Shown in pieces: positions 7,070 to 24,468 of a stretch of 64,000 nucleotides of DNA. The DNA is from a virus: the IMG/VR virus record IMGVR_UViG_3300037046_000297, positions 3,258 to 67,257 of that record; one strand, written 5' to 3'. Position 1 is the first letter of the stretch, and every line of letters begins with the position of its first letter. The position numbers and the translations under genes were made by a program. The notes under the pieces are model-generated. The model was not told the origin of the DNA. It searched no databases and was given only the letters and a program-made list of their open reading frames with translations.

Positions 7070-7257
7070 CAATCGGAAAATTTACTTATGTTCACAAAGC
7101 CGCACAGGAGCTTTGTTGCACCGAACGACACATTTACGATTTGATCAAATCCGGTAAGCTTAAAGCCATCAGGCTCGGGCCTCGCGGCTTGCGTGTGTTG
7201 AAAGACTCCATTGATAAGTACATCAAGAAGAACATGCTCAAGGTATCTAAATTTTGA
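7066..7257 (+). CDS. Excisionase-like (HTH_17/MerR-type) DNA-binding protein
   Basis: AAQELCCTERHIYDLIKSGKLKAIRLG; its stop codon overlaps the MITE end. Confidence 0.8.
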   Translation: MTIGKFTYVHKAAQELCCTERHIYDLIKSGKLKAIRLGPRGLRVLKDSIDKYIKKNMLKVSKF

Positions 7258-7379
7258 TGGCTTCGCAAAAAGTCCAATCTCTGCGTTGCACTGCATCCTT
7301 CGTCATTGCGGCGTACGAAAAGTACGCCTCACTCCTCAGGGTTTGTGCGCCTTGATCTTGAACGTTTTGCTTTGCCATC
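7256..7379. mobile_element. MITE-like non-autonomous repeat
   Basis: Imperfect terminal inverted repeats GATGGCTTCGCAAAAAGT...ACGTTTTGCTTTGCCATC; internal hairpin GGCGTAC-GAAAA-GTACGCC. Confidence 0.7.
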
Positions 7380-7417
7380 ATGATCTGCATTTTTCTTTCA
7401 GCATCGAGGGCGGCAGC

Positions 7418-8371
7418 ATGTCAATAGGAACCGGATTCATCAAGCTACACCGGGCAATTCTTAATTCGGAAGTTTTTCAAAACGTAGCGCTGTTCAAGGT
7501 TTGGATATGGTGTTTGTTAAGAGCAAACTTCAAAAAATGTTCCTACAGCATACCAGCGGGCAAGGGTACGGCTGTTATTGAATTAGAACCGGGTCAATTT
7601 ATTTTTGGAAGAAATAAGGCGGCGCTTGAACTTAAAATGACCGAGAGCGGACTTTATAAACGAATACAAAAATTGAAAAATTCCGGGAACATCACCGTTG
7701 AAAGCAACAACAGATTTTCAATTATTACCATTGTAAAATGGCGTACTTACCAGGATTGCATCGGAATTGGCAACAGGGAGAACATGGACGAAAAAAAGAA
7801 ACAGCAAAGTAACAGCAAAAGCAACAACAAAAGTAACAGCCGAAGAAGCAGCGAAAGCAACAACAAAAATGATCAAATTATAACTGAAATTTCAGATAGT
7901 TGTAATCGTGGCGATGAAAAAAGCAACAACAAAAGCAACTGCAAAGTAACAGCTAAAGCAACTGCAAAAAGTTTTGAAAAGGATCACAGGATAAGAAGTA
8001 AAGAAAGAAAAGAAGAAGAAAGAAAAAAAAATTCTAGCGAATTTTCTTCCGGTGAGCTGGAAACCCCAACAGAAGTTTTCATTTTTAAAATTCCCCTTAA
8101 CGACAAAACAGAATTTGGAATCACTCAAAAAGATTACGACAAATGGCAGGATACTTTCCCGGCGGTAGATGTCATGGCACAACTGAAACGCATGGCACTA
8201 TGGTGTGATGACAATCCGAAGAACCGGAAAACTTCACGGGGAGTCCGAAAATTCATTTCTTCCTGGCTATCGAAAGAACAAGACCGGGCACAACGTGTCA
8301 ATCCAGGGTTCAAAAAATATGACAATGCGGCGAACATCAAAAAAATGATGGAGGAGCTCAGCGATGATTAA
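7418..8371 (+). CDS. Phage replication initiator protein
   Basis: GFIKLHRAIL, LEPGQFIFGR, ITIVKWRTYQ N-terminus; WCDDNPKNRKT..FISSWL C-terminus; start set at ATG 7418 because the longer ORF reads through the MITE. Confidence 0.85.
   Translation: MSIGTGFIKLHRAILNSEVFQNVALFKVWIWCLLRANFKKCSYSIPAGKGTAVIELEPGQFIFGRNKAALELKMTESGLYKRIQKLKNSGNITVESNNRFSIITIVKWRTYQDCIGIGNRENMDEKKKQQSNSKSNNKSNSRRSSESNNKNDQIITEISDSCNRGDEKSNNKSNCKVTAKATAKSFEKDHRIRSKERKEEERKKNSSEFSSGELETPTEVFIFKIPLNDKTEFGITQKDYDKWQDTFPAVDVMAQLKRMALWCDDNPKNRKTSRGVRKFISSWLSKEQDRAQRVNPGFKKYDNAANIKKMMEELSDD
7798..7970. repeat. Iteron-like repeats (putative phage origin) inside the initiator gene
   Basis: Repeated AAAG(C/T)AAC(A/T)(G/A)C units in an A-rich tract, analogous to the iterons within lambda O. 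Confidence 0.6.
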
Positions 8372-8657
8372 CAAGAAACGGCTTTTGGAAATGATGGTTG
8401 ACTTTGCCGAGGTTTGGCCGCGTGAAGTCACCCCCAAACTTGTGAACCTTTACGCGGATGTCTTGAAGGGATACCCGGCTGAAGATATTGAAACCGCTTT
8501 CCGGCAGGTTCTTGCAACAAACAGATACAAGTTTCCTGACCCTTCCGCATTTGTCGAGGCACTGGGCGGATACACGCATTCAGGGGTTCAGACGAAGAAT
8601 CCCATGCGAGAGTTCCGGGCGGGTGATCTTTCTTTTAACGCTGACCCAAAGGATTGA
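8364..8657 (+). CDS. Putative helicase loader/inhibitor
   Basis: Position between initiator and dnaB; LYADVLKGYP...KFPDPS pattern. Confidence 0.55.
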   Translation: MINKKRLLEMMVDFAEVWPREVTPKLVNLYADVLKGYPAEDIETAFRQVLATNRYKFPDPSAFVEALGGYTHSGVQTKNPMREFRAGDLSFNADPKD

Positions 8658-9964
8658 CCATGATTTCAGAATCATTGCCGCATAACGAAACAGCCGAGCT
8701 GAGTTTGTTGTCGGCATGTTTGCGAGATCCCCAAAGCCTGACCGATTCGGGTGACCTGCTTTCTCCGGGCGATTTCTATTCATCCAGGAATGGGAAGATC
8801 TTCAAAGTTTTTATGGAGTGCGCAGTCAGAAACCCGGAAAAACCGCTTGAAATGGCCGAGGTGATGACCGCGTTACAGCGTGAAGGCGTTTCCCTGTCCG
8901 TTATTCCCGAGCTTGACTTGGAGCCGATAGCCGTCAATATCGCAAGGGTTGCCGGGATCATCAAAGAAAAAGCCGTTCTACGGAGAACCATCGAAACATC
9001 ATTGGCCGGAATCAAGGCCATGATGACCTGCAACTGTGATGCCACTGAAATCATTGACGACTACCAGCGGAAGATTCTTTCAATCGAAATTTTCGGCAGG
9101 GCTGCGTGTGAAGCGTCCAGTATCAGCGAGCTGGTGAACGAGAGCCTTGACCGATATGAGCTTGCAGCGACAAAGGGCGGGGTTACCGGCCTTCCCACGG
9201 GCCTTTGTGACCTTGATGCGGTGCTGGGGGGCCTTCAGCCTTCTGACCTGATAATTTTGGCAGCCAGGCCGAGTATGGGCAAAACCGCCTTTGCCTTGAA
9301 TATCGCCGAGCGGTGCGGCGTTCCGGCGATTGTGTTCAGCCTTGAAATGTCAAAAAACCAGTTATCTGACCGGTCGTTATCCGGGCGGGCAAGAATAAAC
9401 CTTTCCCGGCTGACCACCGGCAAACTGTATGCCGATGATTGGGACCGGCTGAACCAGGCAGCCGGGGAGGTTTCAGAATTGCCGATTTACGTTGATGACA
9501 GTCCGGCGCTCCATTTTTCGGAAGTCAGACGGCGGGCGCGGATAGCGTACAAGCGGCACGGAATCCGCCTTGTGGTCATTGACTATCTGCAATTGATGCG
9601 CGGCGATGCAGTAAAAGGGAACCGTGAAGCCGAGATCGCAAGCATTTCCAGGGCGCTGAAGGGTCTTGCAAAAGAATTGTGCATTCCTGTCCTGGCGCTG
9701 AGCCAATTAAACCGAGAATTGGAAAAACGCAGCAACAAAAGGCCGCAGCTGTCTGACCTGCGTGAAAGTGGTCAAATTGAACAAGATTGCGATGTCTGCC
9801 TGTTTCTCTACCGCGATGAAGTCTATGACAAGTCACCCGAAAATCCGAACAGGGGCATTGCTGAAATTATCGTGGCGAAACACCGCAACGGGCCTATCGG
9901 CTTTGCAAAGGTTGCGTTTAATCCTGAAACTGTAATGTTCCGGAACCTTTGCCGGGGAAGATGA
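8654..9964 (+). CDS. dnaB: Replicative DNA helicase (phage DnaB)
   Basis: AARPSMGKT Walker A, FSLEMS, VIDYLQLM, LSQLNR, DLRESGQIEQD, KHRNGP. Confidence 0.95.
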   Translation: MTMISESLPHNETAELSLLSACLRDPQSLTDSGDLLSPGDFYSSRNGKIFKVFMECAVRNPEKPLEMAEVMTALQREGVSLSVIPELDLEPIAVNIARVAGIIKEKAVLRRTIETSLAGIKAMMTCNCDATEIIDDYQRKILSIEIFGRAACEASSISELVNESLDRYELAATKGGVTGLPTGLCDLDAVLGGLQPSDLIILAARPSMGKTAFALNIAERCGVPAIVFSLEMSKNQLSDRSLSGRARINLSRLTTGKLYADDWDRLNQAAGEVSELPIYVDDSPALHFSEVRRRARIAYKRHGIRLVVIDYLQLMRGDAVKGNREAEIASISRALKGLAKELCIPVLALSQLNRELEKRSNKRPQLSDLRESGQIEQDCDVCLFLYRDEVYDKSPENPNRGIAEIIVAKHRNGPIGFAKVAFNPETVMFRNLCRGR

Positions 9965-10324
9965 AAAATTGGTTGTTTGAGTATATATGTTTATTAAACA
10001 CATACCTCTATGGAAACACCCGTGAAAAATCCTTGCCATCCCTTAATAATCCTGCAACGACATTGCTTCTACCCTTAAGCGCCATGCCGTGCATGTTGTA
10101 TATACAAGTTGACTGCCTTTTTGTTGAGTTTTTTTTGATGTTTTTTAGGCGTGAATGCAGGACCGTTTTGACGTCTGTGACTGGGCTGGTGGATTGCGAC
10201 ATTTATGTTCCATTAATGGGGGAACCCCGGCTGCGCCTCGGTAGGTGGTAACTATTATAAATATAACCATAATATGGTAGAGAAAATTCATGTGTTGCAA
10301 CATTTTGTAACGTGAATGATACAC

Positions 10325-10355
10325 AAAAAAGCGGCGCCCTTGAGAGGATGCCGCT
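10325..10355 (-). terminator. Rho-independent terminator
   Basis: Minus strand AGCGGCATCCTCTCAAGGGCGCCGC followed by TTTTTT, directly after the stop at 10371. Confidence 0.75.
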
Positions 10356-10370
10356 GACAGACGGACTGAA

Positions 10371-10757
10371 CTACGCGGCTTTGGCTTCTTCATCGCAAAC
10401 GGCCGGATCGAGCACGATGTACTTTTTCTTGAAAGAAACCAGCCCGGTGCTGGCCCGGAACACGCCTGCGAGCTCGTATTGATAGACATGATATGCATAC
10501 GACACGCACGCCCCCTTGCCGTTATAAAAATAAATATCATATGCCTTGTGAGCGTTTTGCGTGACATGAATCATGGTAACGCCATTGACTGCGCAAACAT
10601 CGATCTGCAGGGCATTGTGGCTGCTGAGGATATTGTGCGCCCCAACTTTTTCGAGCGCCTGCACACCGCCCAGGGCAAGAAATATTTCCGTGGGAACATC
10701 GGGATAGAAACGGACATATCCGGCCGGCAAAGAAGCGGGAAAAAAAGATAGCTGCAT
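10371..10757 (-). CDS. Small phage protein of unknown function (paralog B)
   Basis: AGGAGG RBS before ATG at 10757, downstream terminator; IFLALGG...YDIYFY...VYQYELAGVF. Confidence 0.7.
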   Translation of the reverse strand: MQLSFFPASLPAGYVRFYPDVPTEIFLALGGVQALEKVGAHNILSSHNALQIDVCAVNGVTMIHVTQNAHKAYDIYFYNGKGACVSYAYHVYQYELAGVFRASTGLVSFKKKYIVLDPAVCDEEAKAA

Positions 10758-10836
10758 AAGGCACCTCCTGAAGAAATATGTGAAAAATGGAAGCATTGAA
10801 AAACCGCCCTCGGAAACACCGGGAGCACGGCGAGCA

Positions 10837-11247
10837 TTACGGCTGCGGAGCAGGTGCAGCCGGACAGACAGATCGGAACAGATCCGACAGATCGGCGAGC
10901 AGGACATGCTCGACACGCTGAACGACCGAGTTTTGAGAGCCGGAAACCATGCGGAACTCGACGGAACAATGGCCATTGTAGCAGGATACAAAGATAAAAT
11001 TGGCATTGTTGCAGCCTTCGAAAAATAACGATAGAGAAGAAGATGACGCATGCGAATAGCGGGCCTTGAGGCATTTGATAAGCGCCTGGCCCCCGAGTGC
11101 TTGAAAGATTTGGTGAGCAACGGAACCATGGCCCAGGTAAAGCAGCGGATTTGTAGTTGCGCCATCGGAGCGAATATCGAACGGCGGAAGCTTGACACAG
11201 GGAACGCACGGCGAATGAACGGACGGCATACAAAAATTGAGCGACAT
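10837..11247 (-). CDS. Small phage protein of unknown function (paralog A)
   Basis: GGGGGG RBS; IFQALGGQAL...VEF...VLLADLSDLF aligns by eye with the neighbouring gene. Confidence 0.6.
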   Translation of the reverse strand: MSLNFCMPSVHSPCVPCVKLPPFDIRSDGATTNPLLYLGHGSVAHQIFQALGGQALIKCLKARYSHASSSSLSLFFEGCNNANFIFVSCYNGHCSVEFRMVSGSQNSVVQRVEHVLLADLSDLFRSVCPAAPAPQP

Positions 11248-11307
11248 AAGACCCCCCCTATGGTGAAAAGTTGCGCCTGGCCGACACGCCCAGGCACTAT
11301 AAGAAAA

Positions 11308-11323
11308 TGCAAGCTGCGTGCCA
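11308..11323 (-). promoter_or_regulatory. Sigma54 (-24/-12) promoter
   Basis: Minus strand TGGCAC-GCAGC-TTGCA is an exact match to TGGCAC-N5-TTGCW, about 60 bp upstream of the 11247 start, with an AT-rich tract further upstream. Confidence 0.65.
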
Positions 11324-12186
11324 ATTTATGCCACGATATAAGTTTATTATTATATAAAATCAGTTAGTTATAATAACAATAATTAACAAAACAAGCAATT
11401 AAGCCATTGTACAAGATAATGAACGATATGCCCAAAATGGGTTCATTTTTATGAACTATATAATAAATACAATATGTTATGAGTTTATTTATATGTACCG
11501 GAACCCCTGGCGCACGGGCGCCTGAACCCGAAAAGACACCCTTCCCGGACAGCCTGGACACCGGCCGCCGGATGCCGACTGGAACTGGTACCGACACCTG
11601 GCCGCCGATACCGGCAAACCGACAGGAGCACACCCAACAACGACCAGCCGAAAACCCATTTTGACTAAGGATTTTTTAACCGAAAAAACATTCATCACGA
11701 AATATGGGAGGAAAAGATTCAATATGAATTTTGAGCGCTTAGAGTTTTGAGGTTTTGAATAAATAACGGCTAGCCCCCTTCCAATCTTTTGACAAAAAGG
11801 GGGCTGTTATTTTTTTGAAACCGAAAAAGAGCCAAGCGATAGCGCGGCAGGTTGGAACAAAGGATGAACGATACAACACTTCGGCCTCAAATTGACTTTT
11901 TATCCTTTTAGCAAGTGTTGGGGAATTGCATAAATTTCCAGATGGGAAACCCGGCGGCCGCTAGATTTGGTGCAGGGAATCACGGAAAGTGACCGGCCGC
12001 CCCACAACGGACTTGCAAGGAGCAGGCATCCTAACCCCTTTCCTTGCCCGCCGCAGGCGCGTTGTTGAGTCCCGATAGGTCCAGTGGCGCGCCCCGTGCT
12101 TTTTTTGCATGAGGCGTGACACTAACTCTTTACGTTCCGCAGCATCCGGACCTCTCCCCGTCGCATTTTATTCAATCCTTTGTTAG

Positions 12187-14223
12187 CCTGGATTCCCATG
12201 TGTATAACCCAGGCTAACACATTAATTGCGTTGGATTTGATTTTACGCATGGATTAAGCCATAATTTATTAGTCATAATGATAAACTTATAAATATATAG
12301 CAACATAGTTAAAATAAACTTCATTCTCTTTAAATGACAATTATAAAGTGCAATATGGCTTAAATAAAAGCTTTGAGGCCATATTCATTTTCTTCTTTAC
12401 ATATATCCAATAATTTGACATAGTGGATATATGTTTATTGATAAACAAAATAAATTAACAAATGTGGCTAACGCTTTCCTTGAACCGACCAATGCTACCC
12501 ATCGGCAATATGAAGCATTGAGGGCATTTTTTGTCGATAAGCTGCCAAGCAAGGAAGTTGCCAAGCGGTTTGGGTATACCGATGGAAGTTTTCGCGTTCT
12601 TGCCCACCAATTTCGACAAAATCCTCAACGTGAATTCTTTCTCCCCTCAGCAAAAGGACCTCAACAAGCGCCCAAGAAAGACAAGGTGCGGGAAATGGTA
12701 ATCTCAATGCGCAAGCAGAACCTATCGATCTATGACATCGGCAGGATTCTAAAAACAAAGGGTCATGAGATCAGCCCGGTCAGTATTTCCAATATCCTTA
12801 AAGAAGAGGGTTTTTCAAAATTGCCAAGAAGACTGGATGACGAACGTCTTCCTGGTACACAGCCGACTCGCGGCGATGTGGCCGATGTCCGGCAAATTGA
12901 TTTATCCACTCAAAATTTTCGCACCAAGTTCGGTGGTCTTTTCTTGTTTCTGCCCTTTATTGCCACAATACCTTTTGACGACATTATCGATCAGGCTGGA
13001 TTTCCAGGAACCAAGATGGTCCCAGCCGCCTGCGCCATACGCTCGCTTTTGGCCCTGAAGCTTTTCGGATCCGCCCGCCACAGCCACGTCATGAGCTATG
13101 TCCTTGATCAAGGACTTGCCCTGTTTGCCGGGTTAAATATCGTACCCAAACGCGCTTTTCTTACCGAATACAGTTGCCGTGTAGATCCAGCCGTTTATCA
13201 TATTCTGATGCAATCATGGTTTGATGCCATGCAAAGCATAGGCATCGACCGGGGAACTTCTTTTGATCTGGATTTCCATTCCATCCCTTTTCACGGTGAA
13301 GATGCCCTGGTTGAAAAGCATTATATCTCCAAACGCAGCAGAAAGCAGAAAGGGATATTGGTTTTTTTGGCTCAGGATGCAAAAACCCGTGTTTTCTGCT
13401 ATGCCAATGCAGATCTGCGAAAAGATGAACAAAATGATGAAATCCTTCAGTTTGTAGAGTTCTGGAAACAGCGTACCGGAAATTACCCGCAAGAGCTTAT
13501 TTTCGATTCCAAATTGACCACTTACGCAAACCTGAACAAACTCAACCAGATGGGTATTCTCTTTATGACCCTTCGACGACGCTCTCAAAAAATGCTCCAA
13601 CTGATCAACGATGAACCAGTATCGGCTTGGCGTCGGATTGAGCTGGAAAGCGTTTCCCGGATCTATAGAACCCCTCGAATATTGGATCAAAAAATCACGC
13701 TGAAAGATTATCAAGGAGAAATCCGTCAGCTGGTGGTTAAAGATCTGGGCCATGAAGAGCCGATGTTTCTTTTAACAAACCATTTGAAATGCTCGGCAGC
13801 AAAATTGATCAATCGCTATGCCAAAAGAATGATCATAGAAAATCGAATCGAAGACAGCATCGATTTTTTCCATATGGATGCCCTGTCCTCATCGGTTGCC
13901 ATGAAAGTCAATCTCGATGTTCATCTCTCCTTAATGGCCAGTAGCCTTTATCGCTTATTGGCTCTGAAAATCGCAAACGGCTATGAAGATGCCAAATCAA
14001 GTCATCTCTTCAGAGATTTTATTGATGCAACAGGCAATGTCAGAATTACAAAAAAACAAATAACCATCGAGTTTCAAAAACGTGCGCACAATCCTCTACT
14101 TATTGCCGCAGGTTTAAACAATATTGAAACTCGGATACCCTGGCTTAATGATAAAAAACTCCGCATTGTTCTGGGATAATCGCTCCGTGATGTTAAGTCA
14201 AAAAGTTAACATGGGAATCCAGG
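12187..14223 (+). mobile_element. Insertion sequence with DDE transposase
   Basis: Perfect 15-bp TIR CCTGGATTCCCATGT (12187-12201 / 14209-14223); TTAG duplication on both sides; the paralogous empty site near 15481 has a single TTAG. Confidence 0.9.
12431..14179 (+). CDS. DDE transposase (IS4-superfamily-like; family not assigned)
   Basis: N-terminal HTHs; DLDFHSIP, IFDSK, Y-x2-R-x3-E (YAKRMIIE) motifs. Confidence 0.9.
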   Translation: MFIDKQNKLTNVANAFLEPTNATHRQYEALRAFFVDKLPSKEVAKRFGYTDGSFRVLAHQFRQNPQREFFLPSAKGPQQAPKKDKVREMVISMRKQNLSIYDIGRILKTKGHEISPVSISNILKEEGFSKLPRRLDDERLPGTQPTRGDVADVRQIDLSTQNFRTKFGGLFLFLPFIATIPFDDIIDQAGFPGTKMVPAACAIRSLLALKLFGSARHSHVMSYVLDQGLALFAGLNIVPKRAFLTEYSCRVDPAVYHILMQSWFDAMQSIGIDRGTSFDLDFHSIPFHGEDALVEKHYISKRSRKQKGILVFLAQDAKTRVFCYANADLRKDEQNDEILQFVEFWKQRTGNYPQELIFDSKLTTYANLNKLNQMGILFMTLRRRSQKMLQLINDEPVSAWRRIELESVSRIYRTPRILDQKITLKDYQGEIRQLVVKDLGHEEPMFLLTNHLKCSAAKLINRYAKRMIIENRIEDSIDFFHMDALSSSVAMKVNLDVHLSLMASSLYRLLALKIANGYEDAKSSHLFRDFIDATGNVRITKKQITIEFQKRAHNPLLIAAGLNNIETRIPWLNDKKLRIVLG

Positions 14224-17200
14224 TTAGTAAAACTTGCCGACTGCTCCGGCCGTGGCATGTTCCCTCAGCGTGTTGATTGCGCATTGCCGTGCCGGAAAAC
14301 AGTAGTTTGTCCAGGCAACTCTGTCCGTCCCCCGACACCGATGACCGGCTGTTTGGTGATCGGTGCCGCACTCCCCACATCCGGGCTCACCACGTTCCGG
14401 CTTTTTCGTCCCATGCGATGGATACCGAGGCTTTTCGCGAGGTTTCCGGAGCCCGCTCTCCACGTTCAAATCTTTTATCCTGCTTTTAACAGTGGGGTGG
14501 TGGGCGGGCATTATCAATAATGCTTTTATCCTTTTCTGACAGAATTCCGACAGCAGATCGTGGCGCTGCTCACCCTGTTCCCGGCGGCGCGGCCGTTGCG
14601 CGCTTTTTTGCAAGGGCCGTGCCGCGAGCTTCTCACGTTCAGACGGCAGGCTTTTCTCTCGGCGTTTTTCCAATGCCTCGATTTTCTGCACAGCCAGCGC
14701 GCTCCCGGTTTTTTGGGAGCGCGCTGGCCAGTGGCATCCGAGGTTTTTTTTCGTGGCGTCTCACCTAAAGGTCGCTTGAGTACCGCTCCCGGCTTTTTGG
14801 GAGCGGTACTCCGGCACCTAACCCCGCAAACGGCTTTTTTTGGGGCATACCACCAGCTGTCCGCTTTTTTTGCACCGCCAGAGCGCTCCCCGGATTTTTG
14901 GGGAGCGCTCTGGCCCTCGGGCCTGTCGGCTTTTTTTGTGGCGGATCTCAATTGTGGCCTTGAGGCCCGTCACGCAGGCCCTTGCGGAGTGACGGGCCGA
15001 ACTGCACGGCCGAAGCGCTCCCGGGCTTTTTTCGGGAGCGCTTCGGCCCCCTGGGCATGCGGCTTTTTTTTCTTGGCGTTTCACAGGTCGTCGCCTAGGC
15101 GCTCCCCGGTTTTTAGGGGAGCGCCGATCAGCACGGACTGTGGCGTCCCTCATTTTTTTTAAACGTACCGAAAGGTCACTTGCCTACCGCTCCCGGCTTT
15201 TCGGGAGCGGTAGGCCTGCACCTTACTTGGCACGCGGTTTTTTTCTACATCGCATACATTCTTACGTGGACTTGCAGCCCGGTCACGTAGGCCCTTGCGG
15301 AGTGACCGGGCTGCACTGCACCATACGTCCAGTGTGCTCCCGTTTTTATCAAATGGGCTAAGCGGTTGTCGGGGCGGGTGCGCAGGCGGTTTTTTTCAGC
15401 CGCGGAGCGTCCACCCCGGCTGCCGCGCCATCCGTCGTCCCCCAGCACCCGAACATAGACCCGTCGCTTTTTATTCATTCCTTTGTTAGTAAAACGTGCC
15501 GGCAGCCCTGCCGCTCGCGTACCGCCAAACGTCCAGACAGTTCCTTGCCGTGCCCGGATGAAAGTAGTTCGTCGCGTTTCACCACCTGTTCCCCGGCACC
15601 GATGACCGGCTGTTTGGTGATCGATGCCGCACCCCGCACGTCCAGATTCCCCGTACCGGCTTTTCCGTCCCATGCTGCCGGTTGCCGCGTCTTTTTGCGC
15701 GGTATCCGGCGGCACGCACCTTACGTCCCGAGTTTCCCCGGTTTTTTGGGCCGTCACTGCGTCGGGTACCGCGGCCTTTTGCGGTTCCCGAAAGCAAGCT
15801 CAGCACGTGGGGTGGTGGGCGGGTATTATCGAATAATGCTTTTATCCTTTTCTGATGAAGCGAAGCGACTCCACCGGCAGAAAGGTTGTGCGGAGCGAGC
15901 AAGAGGACGCATAAGGCCCTGGGGCAAGTCGCTGCGTTCGGCACGGCTGATAAGAGCTCTTATCAGCCGTGGCTTTTTGTCATGCTGGGTGCAAAAAGCC
16001 GCACCCATCCCGCCAAAAACCTCCCCTCACTTCGCTAGACATAACACGCATTATGTCTCCTTGCCCCAGGGCCTTATGCGGCCGGGCACACAAAAGAAGG
16101 GAATCAAACTGACTTTTTATTCCGCCAGCAGATCGTGGCCATGCGCATCACTTCCCGGCGGCGCGGCCGTTGCGCGCTTTTCTGCAAGGGCCGCGCCGCG
16201 TGCCCCTCACGTCCAGACAGCGGGCTTTTCACTCGGCGTTCCCCGGTGTTCCGATTTTTGCACAGCCAGTGCGCTCCCGGCTTTTTGGGAGCGCACTGGC
16301 CCGCGGCGTCCGAGGCTTTTTTGATGGCGTCTTACCGTAAGGTCACTTGAGTACCGCTCCCGGTTTTTTGGGAGCGGTACTCTTACACTGAATGTGCAAG
16401 CTCGTCTTTTCCCTGGCGTCTCTCGGTAGCGGACTTGAGGCCCGTCACGTAGGCCCTTGCGGAGTGACGGGCCGAACTGCTCAGCCGAAGCGCTCCCCGG
16501 CAGTTTGGGGAGCGCTTCGGCCGTGACGCTGCGGCTGTTTTTTTTCGTGGCCCTGCACCAAAGGTCGCTTGAGTACCGCTCCCGGCTTTTTGGGAGCGGT
16601 ACTTCGCTGCTGAACGTGGCCCTTGCGGCTGTTGTTTTTTTGGTCACGGCACAAAAGGTCGATTGCCTACCGCTCACGTAGGCTCTTGCGGAGTGAGCGG
16701 TAGGCCTGCACCTTACGCCCGCCTGTGTTTTTTTTCGTGGCGCACGCAACCATACGTGGACTTGAGGCCGGTCACGACCAGTTGGGAGTGACCGGCCGAA
16801 TCGCACTTCATATGGCACTGTTCCGGTCCTTGTTTTTTTTCGTGGCATCCCCCGATAGTGGACTTGCAGCCCGCTCACGTAGGCCCTTGCGGAGTGAGCG
16901 GGCTGCACTGCACCACACGTCCAGGGCGGGCTTTTGCTTTTATCAAATAGGTTCAGCGGCTGTCGGGGCGGGTGCGGAGGCAGCATTTTCAGCGCGGAGC
17001 ATCCGCCCCGGCTGCCGCGTCATCCACGGAGCGAGGGGCTGGCAAAGCCAATACAACTTTGCCTGTCCCGCGCGACCCCTCAAAGGGGTGGTGGTCGGGC
17101 ATTGTCAAAAATGACGGAGCACGGCCGCAGAGCAGCCAATACAACTGCGGCGTGGCCGCGCGACTCCTTCAGCGTTTTGAATGAACGCATTGCACCCAAT

Positions 17201-18259
17201 TTCGTCGAGGTGCGGCCGGGCAGTTTTGTGTCCGGACGCGCCGGTCAACTTCGTCAGAACGCCTATCGGCTTTTGCTTTTCCGTCCAGACTGAAAGGTCG
17301 TCGCATAGGTGCTCCCGTGCTTTTCGGGAGCGCCGGCCAGCACCTGGCAGTGGCGCAGCGGCTTTTTATCAAATGATGTTGAAGCCAGTCACGTAGCGGA
17401 GCGGAGTGTCTGGCGCCTCCTTATTGCTTTTTTGTCCAAACTGAAAGGTCGATTGATAGGCGCTCCCCGGTTTTTTGGGGAGCGCCGGTCAGCTTCTCAC
17501 GTGGCCCTGCGGCTTTTGCTTTTCCGCGGCGTCTCTCGAAAGTGGCCTTGCAACCCGGTCACGACCGCTGTTTGGGAGTGACCGGGTTGCTCTGCACCAC
17601 ACGCGGCGTCCTGGCTTTTTCGTGGCATTCCACGATAGTTGTGATTTGAAGGCGGTCACGTAGCGGAGCGGAGTGTCCGCCTGAACGGCACCGCATGTGG
17701 CGTCATAGCTTTCCGTGGTGCTCCCAGGAAGGCCGCCTTGAGGCCCGTCACGTAGTGAAGCGAAGTGACGGGCCGAACTGCCTTTCACGTGGCGCCAGGG
17801 CTTTTGCTTTTCAGTTGCGTCTCTCGATAGTGGCCTTGAGGCCAGTCACGACCTGTTGGGAGTGACTGGCCGAATGTATCTCACGTGATCTTGTATCGCG
17901 CCTTTAGGCGCGTTATCCTTGCCGACGGGTGCTTTTCTCCCGGCGGGAGTCAACTACATGAAGTAGAACGCGGGCACGCAATACCGAACAGTCATGTCAT
18001 TGACTCGCGAGCGTTAGGGGGGCTGGAGGGAAGTCTTCGGCGGCTTTTTGCCGAAGACCGGAGCGAAGCGGAGCCGGAAGACACCCGACGGCGAAGCCGG
18101 AACGCCCGTCTCATTTTGCTGTATAGCAGCTACCACTACCATATACACTTGCACACCCACTACCACATCAACATCCACCACCAGATCCACCACAACAACA
18201 CCCACGCGTAGGCGCTAGCGGAGAAATGAAACAACAATAACAACCACGGCCAAAGCGGT

Positions 18260-18289
18260 GCTTTTGCTTTTGCTTTTGCTTTTGCTTTT
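18260..18289 (+). repeat. (GCTTTT)5 tandem repeat
   Basis: Directly visible. Confidence 0.9.
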
Positions 18290-18907
18290 TCGTCCACCAG
18301 GCACCACTAGTTCCAGCGGCGCGACCCTTGCAAGCTTTTCTGCAAGGGGCGTGACGCCTTCACTTCACCTGGCGCGCCACTATCAAATACCAATGCCTTT
18401 ATCCACTTTTTGACGGAGCGAAGCGACACCGCAAGCAGAAAGAGGGCACGGCACCACACGCCCCTGCGGCGCGACCCTTGCTTGCTTTTTTTCGCAAGGT
18501 GCGCGACGCCAGCTCATCACTTCCGGGCTTCACCCAGGCGCAACACACCCGAAAGTTCGTATAAGTCACATCACGTCCAGGCTTCCACCATCAAACTGAC
18601 CCGATCCGAAAGCAGATATACCGCAACAAAACCAAAGTCCAAGCGGCGCGCCCCTTGCGTTCTTTTCTTTTTGCAAGGGGCGTGACGTCAGCACCGTCAG
18701 CGCACTTGCTTCCATCTTCGGCCTTCTGCACACTTGCCTTCGGGTTCAACCATCACCCGCCTTCCGCCACCTTTCCTTCAACATCTGCTACCTGCGTCAC
18801 CACCACTGTCAGCCCCAGGCACCTGGTTTCATTGATAGCGCACTTACCTTCCTTCAGCCACCTGCCTTCATCTTCAGCGTCATTTCGTCGTCACTTACGT
18901 CAAAAAT

Positions 18908-18949
18908 GGGTCCTTCCCACACATAGAAATACATACGGGTGCCCCACTT
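18908..18949 (+). other. Lambda-like cos site (cosQ plus cosN)
   Basis: GGGTCCT, then 19 nt, then TACG, then the 12-mer GGTGCCCCACTT; same spacing as lambda GGGTCCT-N19-TACG-GGGCGGCGACCT; the prophage encodes a GpA terminase. Confidence 0.7.
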
Positions 18950-19542
18950 GCACCATTCCCCCAGATTTCCCCCAAAAACCATTATAAAGCGGAAGACCCA
19001 TGAGCAAAAAGGTCTTTAATACCGCTGTAAATGCCCTTGCGAAGGCAGGTAGATATTTTTAACGAGACACTTTCACTCGGCACAAGCGACAGAAGCAGAG
19101 AATGAAGCCTTTGTTCCCGACGGCGCCGGGGGTTTCAACGTCGCAATCAACCCCCCCGTTACCTTACAGGCGGGTTCAACTGCAAGGCACTAGTATCCCT
19201 ATATTATGGTTGATGGACTGGTTACGGGATCAAGAAAACGTAGGAAGATTGATCATGCAAGCGTGATTGCCCAACACGGACTGCCATCTCTGGGACAAAC
19301 CGTATCGGTCGAATCATGAGCCCTGCCCTAAAACATCAAGGCCGTGTTCTCTTTTTGACCATGCAATGAGATTAACAACGCCGACGGCGCATTCGACCTG
19401 ACTGGACTTAGAGCGATGGAGCTATATGAACCGGAAAAATGATTTGAGATGGGAGTGTTTGAACTTTACGCAAAATGTAACATACTATCGGTATCATTAA
19501 TATTTCCAAACCGTCCAATACTCAACAGTAGGATAACATTTC

Positions 19543-19604
19543 ATTGAACGCTGGGCATCAGCAGGCGCACGCTTTTTGCGATCTGCAGTATGCCCTTGTT
19601 AGCA
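19543..19604 (-). other. attC site
   Basis: Minus strand TGCTAAC...GTTCAAT with an imperfect stem; R'' TGCTAAC is complementary to this cassette's entry core GTTAGCA (20236-20242). Confidence 0.8.
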
Positions 19605-19667
19605 ATACATTTTTGAGATTCAGGTAAAGATCATTCACAATGGTATTCACCATATATACAGAAATCA

Positions 19668-20219
19668 TTAGCTGAAAATAAGTTCTGATATATCGTTAAA
19701 TTGTTCTCTGAGCTGCTTCAATTCACGTAGGAATGAAGACGGTTCAAACCCGTTCGGTCCAGACCATGGTTGTCCTTCCTTATTCTGTGGGTATCTGAAT
19801 TTTTGAGCATGAGGATTGTCCTTCTCCATATTTTCAATTATGATTTTATATTTTTTTACTTTGTCTGGCTCGATATTAGAAAAATCAGGTTCCTCTGATG
19901 TAAATAGAAGACGGAACCTGTATTTTTTTCCTTGATAGAGATTTTTGTATCTGTTGTTAAGAATTCCGATGTTATGTGTTGACCCCACATTTTCCTCGGG
20001 AACCGATTTTAGAATTGCGCCCTTTAGAAATAATTCGGTTGCGTGAAATGCAAGATACAATACAACGGAGCCCCTTACATATGTTGCCTTCTTGGTCGAT
20101 CTTGCCAATACAGTACATAAGCGAATAGCAGAATCGAGATATGCGTTTGAAAATACCGAAAACTGCTCAGGCACAGACAAATTCACAACTTCGTAGTCGA
20201 CTAACATGTTCCACTCCAT
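19668..20219 (-). CDS. Cassette-borne HEPN-like protein
   Basis: YLAFHATELFLKG, THNI, FRYP motifs. Confidence 0.65.
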   Translation of the reverse strand: MEWNMLVDYEVVNLSVPEQFSVFSNAYLDSAIRLCTVLARSTKKATYVRGSVVLYLAFHATELFLKGAILKSVPEENVGSTHNIGILNNRYKNLYQGKKYRFRLLFTSEEPDFSNIEPDKVKKYKIIIENMEKDNPHAQKFRYPQNKEGQPWSGPNGFEPSSFLRELKQLREQFNDISELIFS

Positions 20220-20235
20220 GGATTGTCTCTCACTC

Positions 20236-20283
20236 TGCTAACTCGAAAATCACCGGTTTATCTGGTGCATTTACTTGTTGGAA
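20236..20283 (-). other. Short attC site
   Basis: Minus strand TTCCAAC...GTTAGCA with inner CACCAG/CCGGTG stem. Confidence 0.6.
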
Positions 20284-20349
20284 TTAGGTGTAATGCCCCA
20301 GAACTCCCACCAGTACTCCCACGCGCATTGTTTGCGCCGCGAACATCCC

Positions 20350-21666
20350 TTAGCGCTCAGCAAGAATATTCATATCCATAACTCGCCAAATTGTTCCATC
20401 TGTTATGCGTAGTGCCATTTCACCTTCAGGTGTTTCGGCGATAATTCTTACCGTTATGCCTTTAGACACTGACGAGCCATTGTCGATGTACTCCACAACA
20501 CCACCGACCAATGTGATTGATGGTGCAGTCTCAATGATCCGTTCGACTCTGAAAGAAGTAAACTGGAGTTTGCTGTAAATGCCCCGTATTTTTGCTGGAA
20601 ATGCCTTTACCTCATGTCCATTCATGTATCGTGAAAGATGGTTTCCCATCTTTCCATAATTTTTCTGTTTCCAAAGAATAAGAAATTCTGCAAGATTGTG
20701 CTCAGGCGTCTCGTTGAATATATTCCTGTCCAAGACTATAGTTTCTTCTTCAGGGGTCCATTCACGTGGAATCCATTCACCCTGGTACTTTTTAACCTTA
20801 TTCAGTTCATCGATGACGTGGAAAACTTCCTTCCATGACTTCTTTGGTTCCTCTGGCTGCTCTTCCAATAAGCCCTGCTCAGCTTTTAGTGCCCACTCGC
20901 GTGCGGCAAAGAGCGCTGCCCACGTTTTGGCTGCTACTATATCATTGTCGTATCCTAAATCCATTCCATGCATGATACCGTTTCGGTATGGGATAGTTAT
21001 TGGATCCGTCGTGGTCGAATATCTTCCGGTGTTAAATATCTTTTTTAGTTCATTGAGTCCTTTGCTATGTCCCGCTATGGAGTCCCACGATTCCAGGTCT
21101 GCTTCTTCAGAAGAAAACCCTCGGCGTAAGCCTTTCTGTTTTCCGTGTATTTCGTTTACCATTCCGTCAAGTAAGGCCAATACAACTGGGACACATGCAT
21201 GATAGCGGCCCTCCTCATAATCAATTAGCGCTTTGTTAGCAAGCTCCATTCGTGAGTGAAAAGCCCTCACACCATACATAGACAGGAGTCTCCATTTGAC
21301 TTGCTTTGGCGTATAGTAATCGGCTAATTCTTGCTCTGCTACCGCAATACTTTCATTCTCTGCCAATGATATTGCCCTCTCAGCCACATCGAGGTTCATC
21401 ATCTCGTACATGATCCATCCCAAAGGCGCAAAAATATCATTGAACTTATCAGGTATGGTGGCGAGCCTATTTAATTGATCTTTCATTGAATCAAATTTTT
21501 CAAAGGCGTCGTCCATCTTCAATGTATCAACTTTCAGTAGCTTTAGAAAGGGACGCATAAACGGCATTGCTTTTCTTAAGGCTGTGAAGTTGTCCTGATC
21601 TTTCAAAAGCTTCTTTATGCTTCGGATATCTTGAATTTTTTCTTCATCCATTTTGTCAGCGTCCAC
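20350..21666 (-). CDS. Cassette-borne protein with HEPN-type R-x4-H motif
   Basis: YHACVPVVLALLDG and RNGIMHG. Confidence 0.65.
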   Translation of the reverse strand: MDADKMDEEKIQDIRSIKKLLKDQDNFTALRKAMPFMRPFLKLLKVDTLKMDDAFEKFDSMKDQLNRLATIPDKFNDIFAPLGWIMYEMMNLDVAERAISLAENESIAVAEQELADYYTPKQVKWRLLSMYGVRAFHSRMELANKALIDYEEGRYHACVPVVLALLDGMVNEIHGKQKGLRRGFSSEEADLESWDSIAGHSKGLNELKKIFNTGRYSTTTDPITIPYRNGIMHGMDLGYDNDIVAAKTWAALFAAREWALKAEQGLLEEQPEEPKKSWKEVFHVIDELNKVKKYQGEWIPREWTPEEETIVLDRNIFNETPEHNLAEFLILWKQKNYGKMGNHLSRYMNGHEVKAFPAKIRGIYSKLQFTSFRVERIIETAPSITLVGGVVEYIDNGSSVSKGITVRIIAETPEGEMALRITDGTIWRVMDMNILAER

Positions 21667-21700
21667 ACCTCATAATTTGGTGTTACTTTTGCGACCAACG

Positions 21701-22990
21701 TTAATCAAATGCTGCAAAGATGGACTCCAGAATGACCCGCAAGCCTGACCAATCGGCTTGATCAAAAGCATTGGCGTCGCGCCTAGATCGCTCAAGCTTT
21801 TGTCGAAAGGCCGCATGGATGTCATTTTTTTTCCTCACCTCGCCTTGGTATCTGTCAATCGCGTTGATATACCCCTTCCACTGCACCGGTATCAGAGTTC
21901 CTTTTTCGAGCAGTACGTCGCGGCCAAGATACAGCTCAATACTCGCTGCTGATCCGTTGACGTCTATGTCAGCTTGGCCAGATGGCCCAATCGTTGGGTA
22001 TTGTCTCAGTAGATCAATTGGAGGGTAAGTGAGTACCGCAATGTTTTTTGGAAGCGAAAGGCGGTCAAGCGTGCGAATTGCGTCGGCGGCAGCCGCATCG
22101 TTGTCGAATATGGCAATGATGCGATCCGAAAAGCCCGCGGCTGCAAATGCCTTGACCATCAGCGCCAAAGAACCAGCTCCGCCTTGTGGGCGCATACCAT
22201 CGAAATCAAGGAACGAGTAATAGCCGATAAGATGCGGGTAGAGTAGATGTAAGGATTTTTCCAAAAACTCCCGATCTGTGGAGCCCTCTGTCAAAATGAT
22301 TCGGGATGCACTTTCAGGATGATCTTGACTGAGTGACAAAACTGCCTCTGAGCATATCTTTTGGTCACGAGAGTAGTAGCCACCTTCAACGAGGTCGGTT
22401 ACGTCTTGAACCACACTCGCTTGAGGGTCTACAAGTTCACAAGCTATGCGAATGAGCGATCGGATGTCACTGCACAGGAAGCCGAGCCAGTATTCTTCTG
22501 AGTCGCTGAGGATATACTTGACCACCGAGTCGTGATTAGGGTCATCGCGATCGTCGAACGGGAGCGGTTGCAGTCCATTTGTAATGACGCGTCTCAGCGC
22601 ATCTGAGTATGCTTCAAAGTCGAGCTGGGACAAGAAGTCGACTTCCTCTCCCCACGCGCCATCATCTGATTCCGCCCCCCATTCGTCGTATTTTTCGATC
22701 TCTTTGTGCCGTATGGATTCAAATTCCCTGCGAACACGCTCAAGCGTGATGCCCATTATGGATAGTCGATCGAGTGCCTGCGTCACGGAACAAGAGTAGA
22801 GTATTGCTGTCTCGGTTTCGTCTTTGGCAATTTCACCCTCACTCCAAATGAGAGAATTGCGTTCGGAAACAAACCGCCTGCGGACAACTCGGTCACTCTC
22901 ACGAAATATTGACATAGCTTTAGGGTCGACTTTGCTCTTTGTTGTCCAAAGCGGGTATCCAGCTACTTCCAAGTGGGTATAAGTGCCCAT
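21701..22990 (-). CDS. HEPN/Toprim-associated N-terminal domain plus Toprim nuclease-like domain
   Basis: MGTYTHLEVAGYPL N-terminus; IILTEGSTD and IFDNDAA Toprim motifs; ASIELYLG. Confidence 0.75.
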   Translation of the reverse strand: MGTYTHLEVAGYPLWTTKSKVDPKAMSIFRESDRVVRRRFVSERNSLIWSEGEIAKDETETAILYSCSVTQALDRLSIMGITLERVRREFESIRHKEIEKYDEWGAESDDGAWGEEVDFLSQLDFEAYSDALRRVITNGLQPLPFDDRDDPNHDSVVKYILSDSEEYWLGFLCSDIRSLIRIACELVDPQASVVQDVTDLVEGGYYSRDQKICSEAVLSLSQDHPESASRIILTEGSTDREFLEKSLHLLYPHLIGYYSFLDFDGMRPQGGAGSLALMVKAFAAAGFSDRIIAIFDNDAAAADAIRTLDRLSLPKNIAVLTYPPIDLLRQYPTIGPSGQADIDVNGSAASIELYLGRDVLLEKGTLIPVQWKGYINAIDRYQGEVRKKNDIHAAFRQKLERSRRDANAFDQADWSGLRVILESIFAAFD

Positions 22991-23010
22991 AATACTATCC
23001 TATCTCTGCC

Positions 23011-23082
23011 GCCCAACTGCTGGCATCTGCAGTTGCCGGAAGCCGAAGACTGTAGGCAATCTGAACCATGCCGTGGTTCGGT
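23011..23082 (-). other. attC site
   Basis: Minus strand ACCGAAC...GTTGGGC starting 4 bp after the stop codon; stems GGCAT/ATGCC and TTGCC/GGCAA; R'' matches the core at 23714-23720. Confidence 0.8.
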
Positions 23083-23085
23083 GGC

Positions 23086-23700
23086 CTACTTGCACAAGGC
23101 CGGATCTGGCGAGAAATATGAACTACCTATGGTTTTTGATTTCCAGCCTTTTCCCTCCGCCTCAAGAACGTGGAACAAGGCATCTACATACAGCAGGGGG
23201 ACACCGAGGGTTTCCGCAATAGGTTGCCCCTGAACGCCCTTTCCATCACTTTTGATCGCTTCCCACACAGCATGCCGTAGCTTGGCGGTCGCGATGTCGC
23301 CCTTCACGGCGTTATACACCGCCATGATGAATAGCGGCTCACTGAGGCGTACGCTGATCCACCTATTACCGATTGCGTGCTGGACCTGGACGTGGCTCTG
23401 CTTCTCCCAGAGGCTGAGTACTTCGAGGAACTCCCTCAACTCATCGTCAACAGGCCAGCGACGTTCTCCGGTTTCCTCTATTCGTTTGTAGAAGACTGCG
23501 AGCAACTCCGGGGCCCTTGGGTGACAAGCCATGATCGGATTGCGCAGGCCTGAGACCTGTTCCCTTAGCTCTTCTATGGCTTCATTCTGGGCATCGGAGT
23601 CCATTTCCGCCCACCACTGCGACAGCGAAGCCGCGACTGGGACCGATGCAGCCACCGAACGGAGACCCTTCTTGAAAATAGACTCGGGATCCTTCTTCAT
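23086..23700 (-). CDS. First cassette gene, hypothetical (C-terminal winged-HTH-like)
   Basis: GGAG RBS just after the GTT core; bounded by the attI-like core and attC. Confidence 0.65.
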   Translation of the reverse strand: MKKDPESIFKKGLRSVAASVPVAASLSQWWAEMDSDAQNEAIEELREQVSGLRNPIMACHPRAPELLAVFYKRIEETGERRWPVDDELREFLEVLSLWEKQSHVQVQHAIGNRWISVRLSEPLFIMAVYNAVKGDIATAKLRHAVWEAIKSDGKGVQGQPIAETLGVPLLYVDALFHVLEAEGKGWKSKTIGSSYFSPDPALCK

Positions 23701-23713
23701 TCGTTATCTCCAC

Positions 23714-23880
23714 ACCGAACAATAATTATATTGATCCTCATAACATGCGGATTTCTTGATTCCTGTCCGCATATCACGCCGTGAGATTTCTTGCCGAAGA
23801 CATGTTAACAAAAACGCATTCAATTGGTTACTGCCAGATTAGCAGTTTATCACGACATCTTATGCGGATCGGTATAACAT
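23714..23880 (-). promoter_or_regulatory. attI-like site and cassette promoter region
   Basis: Minus strand AATATAATTATT-GTTCGGT core, preceded by repeated CCGCAT/ATGCGG boxes. Confidence 0.55.
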
Positions 23881-23897
23881 GGCGTCCATTTATCGTT

Positions 23898-23933
23898 TCA
23901 AAATCCGTCCACTGGACTGCGAACGCCCTCCTT
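23898..23933 (-). pseudogene. intI: Remnant C-terminus of an integron integrase
   Basis: Minus strand reads KEGVRSPVDGF-stop, resembling the GVRSPxD end of IntI, immediately upstream of the attI-like site; rest of the gene absent. Confidence 0.55.
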
Positions 23934-24468
23934 TGCCTTCCCCTTCCGTCTGCTTGAAGGTGTGCCCAGCCGTTTCATGGGAGACCACAAACATTGGACA
24001 AAAGGATGAATGACCGAAAGCACTTTGTTTTCTGTCCGCATAAATACCAGCTCATAACTGTTTTCTTTGAAATAACAGGAGGATAATGGCTTGTATGTCC
24101 ATATCAGTCAATTGCCATTTTGTTACGTACAGCTTGCAATAATCATAAGTAGGGTAATCTTTCACGATACGAATGGTATCATTCAGTTTCCTGCCCCCCC
24201 GGCCGTAACAATTTACAATCTGTAATCCTCAGAAGTCTTTCACCTAAAAACACCCCTGCAATTTTTTGCTTCCATTACTACCATAAGCCGTTATTCCAAC
24301 ATTTATCTAAGATTACCCTATGATAAAGCGGCCATGCCTGTCAAACGAATTGACACAACGCGAATAGGCGACTCTGGACACAGTAACTCAACCGCTCTGG
24401 AGGTGCCCTATGGGAAAAGTCCACTGCTATTTAATCGTGTCCGTTCGGCAGGAGTGCACAAATTTTAA

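Follow-up and report, generated by a model that had tools for sequence, protein, structure and literature searches.

Positions 11890-18900 of the window, by which we mean the whole 64-kb stretch that was analyzed (bases 3258-67257 of a 67,257-bp IMG/VR provirus record, IMGVR_UViG_3300037046_000297, with a CheckV completeness of 85%), are occupied by an array of hairpin-forming repeats that is interrupted by one insertion sequence (IS) and ends at a predicted lambda-type cos site. With the IS set aside, the array comprises about 5 kb without genes, in which some 30 hairpin modules follow one another head-to-tail at a spacing of about 85-100 bp. Tailed phages are usually more than 90% coding, and a conserved block in which roughly a tenth of the chromosome is given over to hairpins without genes, always at the same location next to cos, needs explanation. 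The region is non-coding apart from the IS, as a preliminary description of the sequence had proposed, because none of the seven longest open reading frames (ORFs) of the array carries a Pfam family and because comparison with the closest relative reveals many 1-nt indels, mostly in T-runs. No tRNA or tmRNA was found, Rfam returned 0 matches at gathering score across the whole window, and the 11 matches obtained at E<=5 on 11700-19300 are sub-threshold and at chance level (E 0.4-5). The components of the array are as follows.

11890-12185, plus strand: left array fragment, separated from the main body by the IS; contains family C copy 1 (12068-12137); repeat families D5/D6
12179-14231, plus strand: IS, not part of the array; DDE transposase at 12431-14179 (Pfam DDE_Tnp_1), 23-nt inverted repeats at 12179-12201 and 14209-14231
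14228-18900, plus strand: main body of the array, with families A (12 copies), B (11) and C (five further copies), D hairpins, GGC-T(n) linkers and a C-rich tail at 18100-18900
14693, 14778, 14877, 15008, 15098, 15182, 16265, 16349, 16484, 16572, 17459: perfect copies of family A
14964, 15273, 16439, 16665, 16766, 16865, 17550, 17742, 17840: perfect copies of family B
12068-12137, 14568-14640, 16142-16214, 18300-18372, 18450-18524, 18627-18703, plus strand: the six copies of family C, an imperfect 16-bp hairpin; repeat families D5, D6 and D11
14495-14509, 15810-15824, 17086-17100, plus strand: near-invariant G-rich box followed by an AT-rich palindrome, each heading a 1.3-1.6-kb higher-order repeat

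Two hairpin families had been recognized in the preliminary description, and both stand at the copy numbers given there. Two covariance models, R1 for family A (E<=0.001) and R2 for family B (E<=1e-5), were used to search 31 sources. Family A consists of 11 perfect copies and a 12th, at about 17308, that is imperfect and was recovered by the covariance model alone, as 17294-17348. Family B consists of nine perfect copies and two, at about 17384 and 17651, with one T.T mismatch each; R2 recovers 10 of these 11 at its threshold, and the copy at 17384 was spotted by eye alone. The restriction to two families did not hold, as the array also includes the six copies of family C, the D hairpin as an additional family, and the G-rich box with its AT-rich palindrome. 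The plus-strand arm of family C reads CGGCGCG-N4-TTGC and is sigma-54-like as judged from pattern matches; six arrays hold 3-6 plus-strand copies each, and the five largest have 3-4 tandem copies just left of cos. The G-rich box has three matches in the window versus 0.45 expected and occurs in 2-4 copies in every array, on the plus strand without exception. At a larger scale, the array contains a higher-order duplication of 1574 bp, and 22 of the 30 perfect hairpins in the window (stem of at least 9 bp, loop 3-17) lie at 14-18 kb. Tandem Repeats Finder reported small microsatellites only, such as (TGCTTT)5 at 18259-18289.

The array is strongly polar. Its main body has an AT skew of -0.19 to -0.24 at a GC content of 54-60%, and the flank boxes AAGGTCG.., GTGG(A/C)CTTG, (C)TGCAC and GGC-T(n) were confirmed around units of the length first described. 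The single orientation claimed for the units was borne out by 13 of the 14 R1 matches and 12 of the 12 R2 matches in the window, all on the plus strand, with the sole minus-strand R1 match being the palindromic reverse of a plus match. Across six arrays, GCTTTT occurs 244 times on the plus strand versus 8 on the minus, CGGCTTTT is distributed 62 versus 1 between strands, and the loops are composed of 40% T and 11% A. The right tail at 18100-18900 is C-rich on the plus strand (GC skew -0.24), with 12- and 18-nt periodic CCAC-type repeats, and includes three tandem family C elements. The left fragment at 11890-12185 shows 90.5% identity to the corresponding DNA of contig L001.

Structural constraint on the hairpin stems

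The searches yielded 252 R1 units and 122 R2 units from about 22 related loci, and no match to either model in eight array-less relatives. For the 117 distinct sequences of family A, the covariation score is 0.215 versus 0.082 +/- 0.006 when shuffled, a value that 0 of 500 shuffles reach. Paired cells amount to 88.0% versus 78.7% in the shuffles and drop to 38-50% when the partner columns are slid; 143 cells are altered on both sides, and within the ten inner pairs there are 127 two-sided versus 2 one-sided changes. Family B, with 88 distinct sequences, follows the same pattern (covariation 0.337 versus 0.105 shuffled, again reached by 0/500; 89.4% of cells paired versus 77.0%; 144 two-sided versus 10 one-sided changes). 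The unit alignments were fitted to the model structure, which biases them toward pairing, and both the slid-partner control and the substitution test given below are independent of this bias. The covariation that the preliminary description had noted in outer stems is real, in both families.

The stems covary almost only from Watson-Crick to Watson-Crick, and G-U pairs are nearly absent where pairs covary. The 102 distinct perfect hairpins of six arrays comprise 1,208 Watson-Crick pairs, and only one hairpin with a core of at least 8 bp extends beyond an internal mismatch. The stems are thus perfect and without bulges, unlike those of attC sites with their extrahelical bases; attC core sites and the attC model were not searched.

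The substitution test relies on the array of G001:C4, a prophage locus in one of two metagenome-assembled genomes (MAGs; G001 and G002), which is orthologous to that of the window. Over 2,965 aligned bases, with an invertible segment described below left out, the two arrays differ by 75 substitutions and 25 indel positions, and 0 of either fall in the 414 stem bases, where 10.5 substitutions would be expected (P=1.3e-5). The hairpin structure is constrained, because the stems covary and because none of the 75 substitutions falls in a stem.

The cos site and the confinement of the array to one phage lineage

Immediately right of the array lies the following element.

18908-18949, plus strand: lambda-type cosQ GGGTCCT, 19-nt spacer and TACG (18908-18937), followed by a predicted 12-nt cohesive end (18938-18949)

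The motif GGGTCCT-N19-TACG has a single exact match in the window. The last 30 bases of lambda (GenBank record J02459) have the identical heptamer, the same spacing and the same chromosome-ending TACG, and the lambda 12-base left cohesive end matches 18938-18949 at 6 of 12 positions. A passage of Feiss and colleagues (PMC4669245) describes the 7-bp cosQ as highly conserved among lambda-like phages and as required to recognize and nick the downstream cos at packaging termination. The cos block is conserved in 10 relatives, and in the array lineage the motif precedes gpW by 70-160 nt where there is no intervening cargo. In relatives with a canonical layout it precedes the small terminase gene TerS by about 100 nt (position 7214 in both L043 and L045), and in L044 (position 4945) it lies about 400 nt from a partial TerS match. 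The lambda-type cos call and the terminal position of the array, which the preliminary description had placed at cosQ, are supported by these sequence comparisons, because the motif matches the lambda right end and sits upstream of TerS in canonical relatives. With GG and GC 12 nt apart, these bases could also be read as a sigma-54-like element, a weaker alternative.

TerL, gpW and portal are likewise of the lambda family. In lambda, however, cos spans about 200 bp directly upstream of the small terminase gene, whereas here it lies between TerL and gpW with 4-8 kb of hairpins on its cosQ side. Judging from gene order, cos appears to have been relocated relative to the terminase genes, as distant relatives retain it just upstream of TerS in the manner of lambda. 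With cos between TerL and gpW, the terminase genes would lie near the right end of the virion chromosome. Because the synteny of sm1-sm2 (the small gene pair left of the array), array and cosQ recurs, the array would form, by analogy to lambda, the final segment of the virion chromosome, its last ~4-8 kb, packaged last. In lambda the cosQ end is packaged last and ejected first, and RecBCD enters the DNA from this right end; by the same analogy the array end would be the first to be injected.

An exact search for the family B core pattern identified three IMG/VR contigs, four loci from two 'uncultured delta proteobacterium' MAGs and 17 metagenome contigs, and a portal search added five further array contigs (L017-L020 and L025). 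These MAGs represent the host group, and the phages are lambda-like and temperate. All 17 metagenome contigs have hairpin clusters with T-rich loops on the B-core strand. Where flanks are present on a contig, sm2 and sm1 lie on one side of the array, reading away from it, with a conserved block of about 85 nt and then gpW-portal on the other. Wherever cos was located (G001:C4, G001:C22, G002:C4, L017-L020, L025, L031 and L036), the array adjoins its cosQ side and keeps one orientation, and this is likewise so in the 5 of the 17 metagenome contigs that contain the cos motif. This agrees with the expectation that arrays recur beside cos and the gene pair at 10.4-11.2 kb in related phages. Array length among close relatives ranges from 3.6 to 7.9 kb, with whole units and blocks gained and lost rapidly, and every close relative keeps 4-8 kb of such non-coding DNA. 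The two covariance models with more than 350 units, the relocated lambda-type cos, and the two cargo hotspots and invertible terminator described below provide handles for phages of uncultured groundwater and coal-seam Deltaproteobacteria.

More distant portal relatives have a different arrangement. Those at 73-83% identity (L024, L032, L034) have a TerL-gpW gap of 2.9-5.3 kb without hairpin repeats, which in L034, the one examined for ORFs, is filled with ordinary small ORFs; those at 44-47% identity (L043-L045) have a canonical, contiguous TerS-TerL-gpW-portal order. Because these distant relatives have no array between TerL and gpW, the array is cargo of one sublineage.

The units are also confined to phage and are not host repeats, as their genomic distribution shows. 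All 17 matches to an A-type pattern in the 4.7-Mb MAG G001 fall within two prophage arrays, as do 5 of 5 in G002 within one (both MAGs are incomplete), and among 23 genomes of the host family, three have clustered matches, two have single matches with unrelated loops and 18 have none. The array units resemble REP/BIME elements (repetitive extragenic palindromes and bacterial interspersed mosaic elements) in being short, GC-rich, non-coding palindromes with variable stems and few loop types that may form DNA or RNA hairpins, and the tetranucleotides GTAG and CGTC, which tag REPs, occur in or near them. REP/BIME elements are dispersed over a host chromosome in copy numbers from tens to thousands. 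In one study (PMC3733652), REPs are described as GTAG- or CGTC-tagged at one palindrome end, scattered over the host chromosome and arranged mostly as head-to-head or tail-to-tail dimers, head-to-tail being rare. In the array, the loop of B units opens with GTAG, and CGTC precedes the A stem by 7-9 nt; neither is an end tag. A REP/BIME identity, which the preliminary description had named among the findings that would refute its interpretation, is ruled out by the phage-only location, the head-to-tail units and the position of the tags. The phage record contains 0 members of PF01797, the RAYT/Y1 transposase family; G001 has 9 and G002 has 6, counted without regard to flanking units.

Assembled contigs from four sequencing runs (X1, X3, X4 and X10) were compared with the window. 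A 5,957-bp contig spans 18078-24034 across the cos site with 0 differences in X1 and X3, and 19.1-24.0 kb is thinly covered in X10. Summed over the four runs across 10300-25000, contig depth over sm1 and the array exceeds that over 19.1-24.0 kb by a factor of 2-4. Many contig joints skip or repeat unit blocks, which fits several related phages with differing arrays in the same groundwater and coal samples.

Neighboring genes, cargo slots and mobile segments

The lambda-family terminase, gpW and portal are all present in the one phage record (Pfam, PHROG). Its order of genes and elements around the array is as follows.

Left end of the record: tyrosine integrase
Right of the integrase, left of the terminase genes: PD-(D/E)XK nuclease, exonuclease and RecT
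Right of RecT: putative small terminase and, at 5213-7069, lambda-type TerL (phrog_15, E 6e-210)
7211-9964, slot between TerL and sm1: DnaD-like loader and DnaB
10371-10757, minus strand: sm1, 128 aa, left neighbor of the array; ORF with ribosome-binding site
10837-11247, minus strand: sm2, 136 aa, distant sm1 paralogue (25% identity)
11308-11323, minus strand: exact match to TGGCAC-N5-TTGCA, reading into sm2-sm1; the sole 0-mismatch match in the window
15905-16083: invertible segment, a 131-bp core (15929-16059) between 24-nt inverted repeats, called from a core that is flipped relative to collinear flanks
18990-24400, minus strand: four cargo genes, one with a HEPN/Toprim N-terminal domain (Pfam)
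Right of the cargo genes: gpW (PF02831), lambda-family portal (Phage_portal_2, E 2e-110) and S49 protease

The small genes sm1 and sm2 are orphan paralogues found only beside these arrays, and they point away from the array, not inward as had first been described. There are 19 homologues of sm1, at 57-100% identity and all unnamed; sm1 lies left of the array in L036, L051, L058 and L065, and tblastn matches to sm2 adjoin sm1 in L036, L051, L055, L058 and L065. The sm1 protein has no Pfam or PHROG family and falls in unnamed clusters only of a protein atlas (0.89-0.90). Its AF2 model (pLDDT 73.6) gave no Foldseek match against the PDB at E<=0.001, and the best VIA-align scores, Z 6.8 (Rv3902c) and Z 6.6 (T4 MotA, C-terminal DNA-binding domain), are both within the range that the tool terms 'common'; the model has no convincing structural relative. 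The promoter match at 11308-11323 is to the sigma-54 consensus, and L036 has a 1-mismatch copy at the same place. In L043 (7099-7114) and L044 (4823-4838), 1-mismatch sigma-54-like promoters on the minus strand lie about 100 nt left of cosQ and point away from cos, paralleling the exact match left of the array in the window.

The module of sm1, sm2, array and cos has a cargo slot on either side. The left slot, between TerL and sm1, contains DnaD and DnaB in the window and DUF3987, a primase zinc-ribbon protein, DUF5131 and DUF3102 in L065, and is empty in G001:C4 and L003. In the right slot, between cos and gpW, the window has its HEPN/Toprim-type genes, L017 has about 6 kb, and L064/L065 have an EamA transporter with an octopine-type dehydrogenase. 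Neither DnaD/DnaB nor the four minus-strand HEPN/Toprim-type genes of the window are present in the closest relative, G001:C4. L064 and L065 were considered as satellites and this was dropped, as their flanks are homologous to those of the window, which makes the unusual genes of both contigs cargo of these two slots. The arrangement recalls the promoter early stem-loop (PeSL) cassettes of T4-type phages, in which stem-loops flank small ORFs and carry a recognizable early promoter. Like PeSLs, the array consists of many stem-loop copies in a hyperplastic accessory region, flanked by the two cargo slots, and may promote the shuffling of cargo. Unlike PeSLs, the units are packed without ORFs, and no array-type hairpins separate the cargo genes at 19-24.4 kb.

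Two further segments distinguish the array of the window. The IS is absent from the arrays of G001:C4, G001:C22 and L001-L003, and G001:C4 joins 12186 directly to 14223; from these comparisons the IS is a late insertion. The 131-bp core of the invertible segment is in the opposite orientation in the window relative to 9 of the 9 other arrays that contain it, with collinear flanks, and likewise relative to L001 and L065. It carries a perfect 30-bp palindrome with GCTTTTTG directly after it; together they make a strong terminator that works one way and is the best in the region. An opposite-strand contig joint from 15908 to 16121 was found in three of the four runs, whose samples contain several related phages. 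The element thus appears to be a one-way terminator of flippable direction, as judged by comparison from array to array and not within one clone. The phage record encodes no serine recombinase, and one tyrosine integrase, that at its left end.

Possible roles of the array

The hairpin array appears undescribed: no account of such an array was found in the full-text literature, a search that did not extend to subscription journals and supplements, and the cos-proximal repeats described before span a few hundred bp. Our tentative preference, held with confidence well short of even, is that the array acts in cis as a DNA element, specific to this lineage, of the cos chromosome end, a gene-free, hairpin-forming buffer that would engage host end-processing or defense enzymes or would slow the terminase before cosQ. 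Watson-Crick-perfect stems argue for DNA rather than RNA helices, or for template-switch correction, which itself needs DNA hairpins. Constraint would act on DNA hairpins or cruciforms, either extruded from supercoiled DNA or formed in single strands during resection or replication. The polar loops, linkers and boxes indicate that one strand is special, and since the plus strand ends 3' at the cosQ terminus, it would be the strand left single on resection of that end; it is also the strand copied by a rightward transcript. A terminal buffer that engages or stalls host end-processing or defense nucleases would be the likeliest job because the segment is, by lambda analogy, packaged last, ejected first and the RecBCD-type entry end. 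Alternatively, the array may slow the terminase just before cosQ is recognized. In either case sm1 and sm2 may serve as its protein partners. If it acts at the DNA level, the array would reveal how a cos phage protects or controls the first-entering end of its chromosome, a question that to our knowledge has been answered for no more than a few model phages. In phage T5, the first-step-transfer end, with its 'injection stop signal', is gene-poor, rich in direct and inverted repeats, contains DnaA boxes and enters first. The array resembles it in layout, as a repeat-rich, gene-poor stretch near the first-entering end; T5 differs in its terminal repeats, two-step transfer, lack of cos and shorter region, and DnaA boxes are not enriched in the array.

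In its fullest form, the array would represent a new class of element, an 'end-guard', in which dozens of extrudable DNA hairpins on the last-packaged, first-ejected cos arm act with sm1 and sm2 to decoy or stall host end-processing and defense nucleases in the minutes before circularization, or to brake the terminase, while the invertible terminator sets which strand can be transcribed. We regard this composite proposal as doubtful.

Several points weigh against a DNA buffer at the chromosome end. The assembled contigs run straight across the cos site. The strand asymmetry of loops, linkers and boxes is not needed by a duplex or cruciform and is better explained by a transcript or a single-strand role. 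Cruciform extrusion is inefficient with loops as long as the 12-15 nt of B units, and compensation restricted to Watson-Crick pairs could stem from template-switch correction of quasi-palindromes and not from selection. Transcription through the array would seem to matter, given that it contains an invertible one-way terminator. The T-runs are not helically phased, and a helically phased bend array was rejected on the same observation. Finally, 'last in, first out' packaging and the entry of RecBCD at the right end are carried over by analogy from lambda.

Another possibility is that the plus strand is transcribed, from internal promoters or as a late-operon leader, to give a long structured RNA or a set of hairpin RNAs with U-rich loops and tails, acting as a sponge for a host or defense RNA-binding protein or themselves serving as small RNAs. 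The single orientation of all units speaks for such an RNA, as do the G+U-rich loops with their polar CGGCUUUU-type motifs (62 versus 1), the conservation of loops while stems vary, the 35 loop-closing G.T pairs on the plus strand of six arrays, the promoter-like box and sigma-54-like family C element that start each higher-order repeat, and the one-way terminator in mid-array. The near absence of G-U at covarying pairs is unusual for RNA helices, however, and this almost purely Watson-Crick compensation weakens the proposal, made in the preliminary description, of a precursor of small RNAs. Moreover, no Rfam family and no per-unit promoter were found, the T-runs are not preceded by proper terminator hairpins, and folding energy is near equal on the two strands (-61.4 versus -58.4 kcal/mol per 150 nt). 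We therefore consider an RNA role possible, with rather low confidence; if correct, it would make the locus an unusually large phage sponge or small-RNA locus. Known guide- and decoy-RNA arrays (CRISPR mini-arrays, the VIPR vrRNA array and ToxI-type repeats) are similarly phage-borne, non-coding, tandem and in one orientation, but the array units are heterogeneous and 85-100 nt long, unlike near-identical repeats with unique spacers. A CRISPR was rejected, as it already had been on layout, given 24 distinct A arms, 15 distinct B arms and no Rfam CRISPR-DR match; no search for cas genes was made. The VIPR vrRNA array is described, in a passage of its report, as tandem 5-nt GGYNN units (10.64898/2026.10.15.759431), and no run of at least 5 such units with at most one gap occurs on either strand of the window.

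It is rather unlikely that the array is a palindromic repeat, restricted to the phage lineage, that propagates itself or expands neutrally and is tolerated or retained as a stuffer for cos-packaging length, with perfect stems as a by-product of template switching. Such a repeat would account for the rapid turnover of units and blocks and the resulting 3.6-7.9-kb range of lengths among close relatives, for the 1574-bp duplication and for the location in a slot that is an accessory hotspot. The window, with about 10 kb of extra cargo plus the IS, also has a shorter array (~5 kb) than L003 (~7.4 kb). The L002 record, however, has a 7.9-kb array plus 6.6 kb of other DNA between array and TerL, so that length compensation is inconsistent. 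Furthermore, stems are spared substitutions where linkers are not, the boxes are near-invariant across diverged arrays, no array departs from the one position and orientation relative to cos, and the phage record has no Y1/RAYT-type transposase.

We consider it unlikely that the array is a transcriptional barrier or insulator, composed of roadblocks, pause sites and weak terminators and perhaps of sigma-54 promoters and enhancer-like palindromes, that separates the terminase and cargo side from the gpW late operon and is crossed only by a modified RNA polymerase. The exact sigma-54 promoter match on the left flank, the tandem sigma-54-like C elements (3-4 in the five largest of six arrays) toward cos and gpW, the flippable strong terminator, the polar GGC-T(n) motifs and an excess of terminator-like sites (24 versus 14.1 +/- 4.2 in shuffles) would fit. 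Against this, the phage record has no gene for a bacterial enhancer-binding protein (Sigma54_activat), sigma-54-like matches across the window are at chance (38 versus 33.4), most T-runs have no abutting stable hairpin, several kb far exceeds any known promoter or terminator region, and perfect long stems are left unexplained. A simple row or cascade of intrinsic terminators was rejected, in keeping with the first impression of the layout: the T-run of A units is the loop itself, and the linker T-runs start 15-30 nt past the stem, with weak or irregular abutting hairpins. The exceptions with a terminator layout are 15942-15971 and 16518-16537.

A replication origin, single-strand initiation zone or partition centromere is very improbable: replication modules do occupy the adjoining slot of some relatives (DnaD-like and DnaB in the window, DUF3987 and the primase zinc-ribbon protein in L065), and tandem palindrome-bearing repeats resemble sopC-type centromeres, but G001:C4 and L003 have the array without replication genes beside it, there are no iteron-like identical repeats, and a DnaA-box cluster was rejected at 13 matches versus 11.0 expected; ParA and ParB were not searched for.

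Two minor observations concern short motifs. The near-invariant G-rich box contains the 8-mer GNTGGTGG, a Chi-like motif that occurs 23 times in the whole window versus 7.9 +/- 2.9 expected. Of these occurrences, 16 are on the plus strand and 7 on the minus; within the array each strand has 3, without polarity, and a Chi-like reading was rejected. Just right of the predicted cohesive end, a 20-codon ORF at 19000-19062 lies in DNA that resembles a degenerate array unit, with an AAAGGTC box and the GCCCTTGCGAAGG loop motif, and among the relatives compared its homology is mainly in G001:C22.

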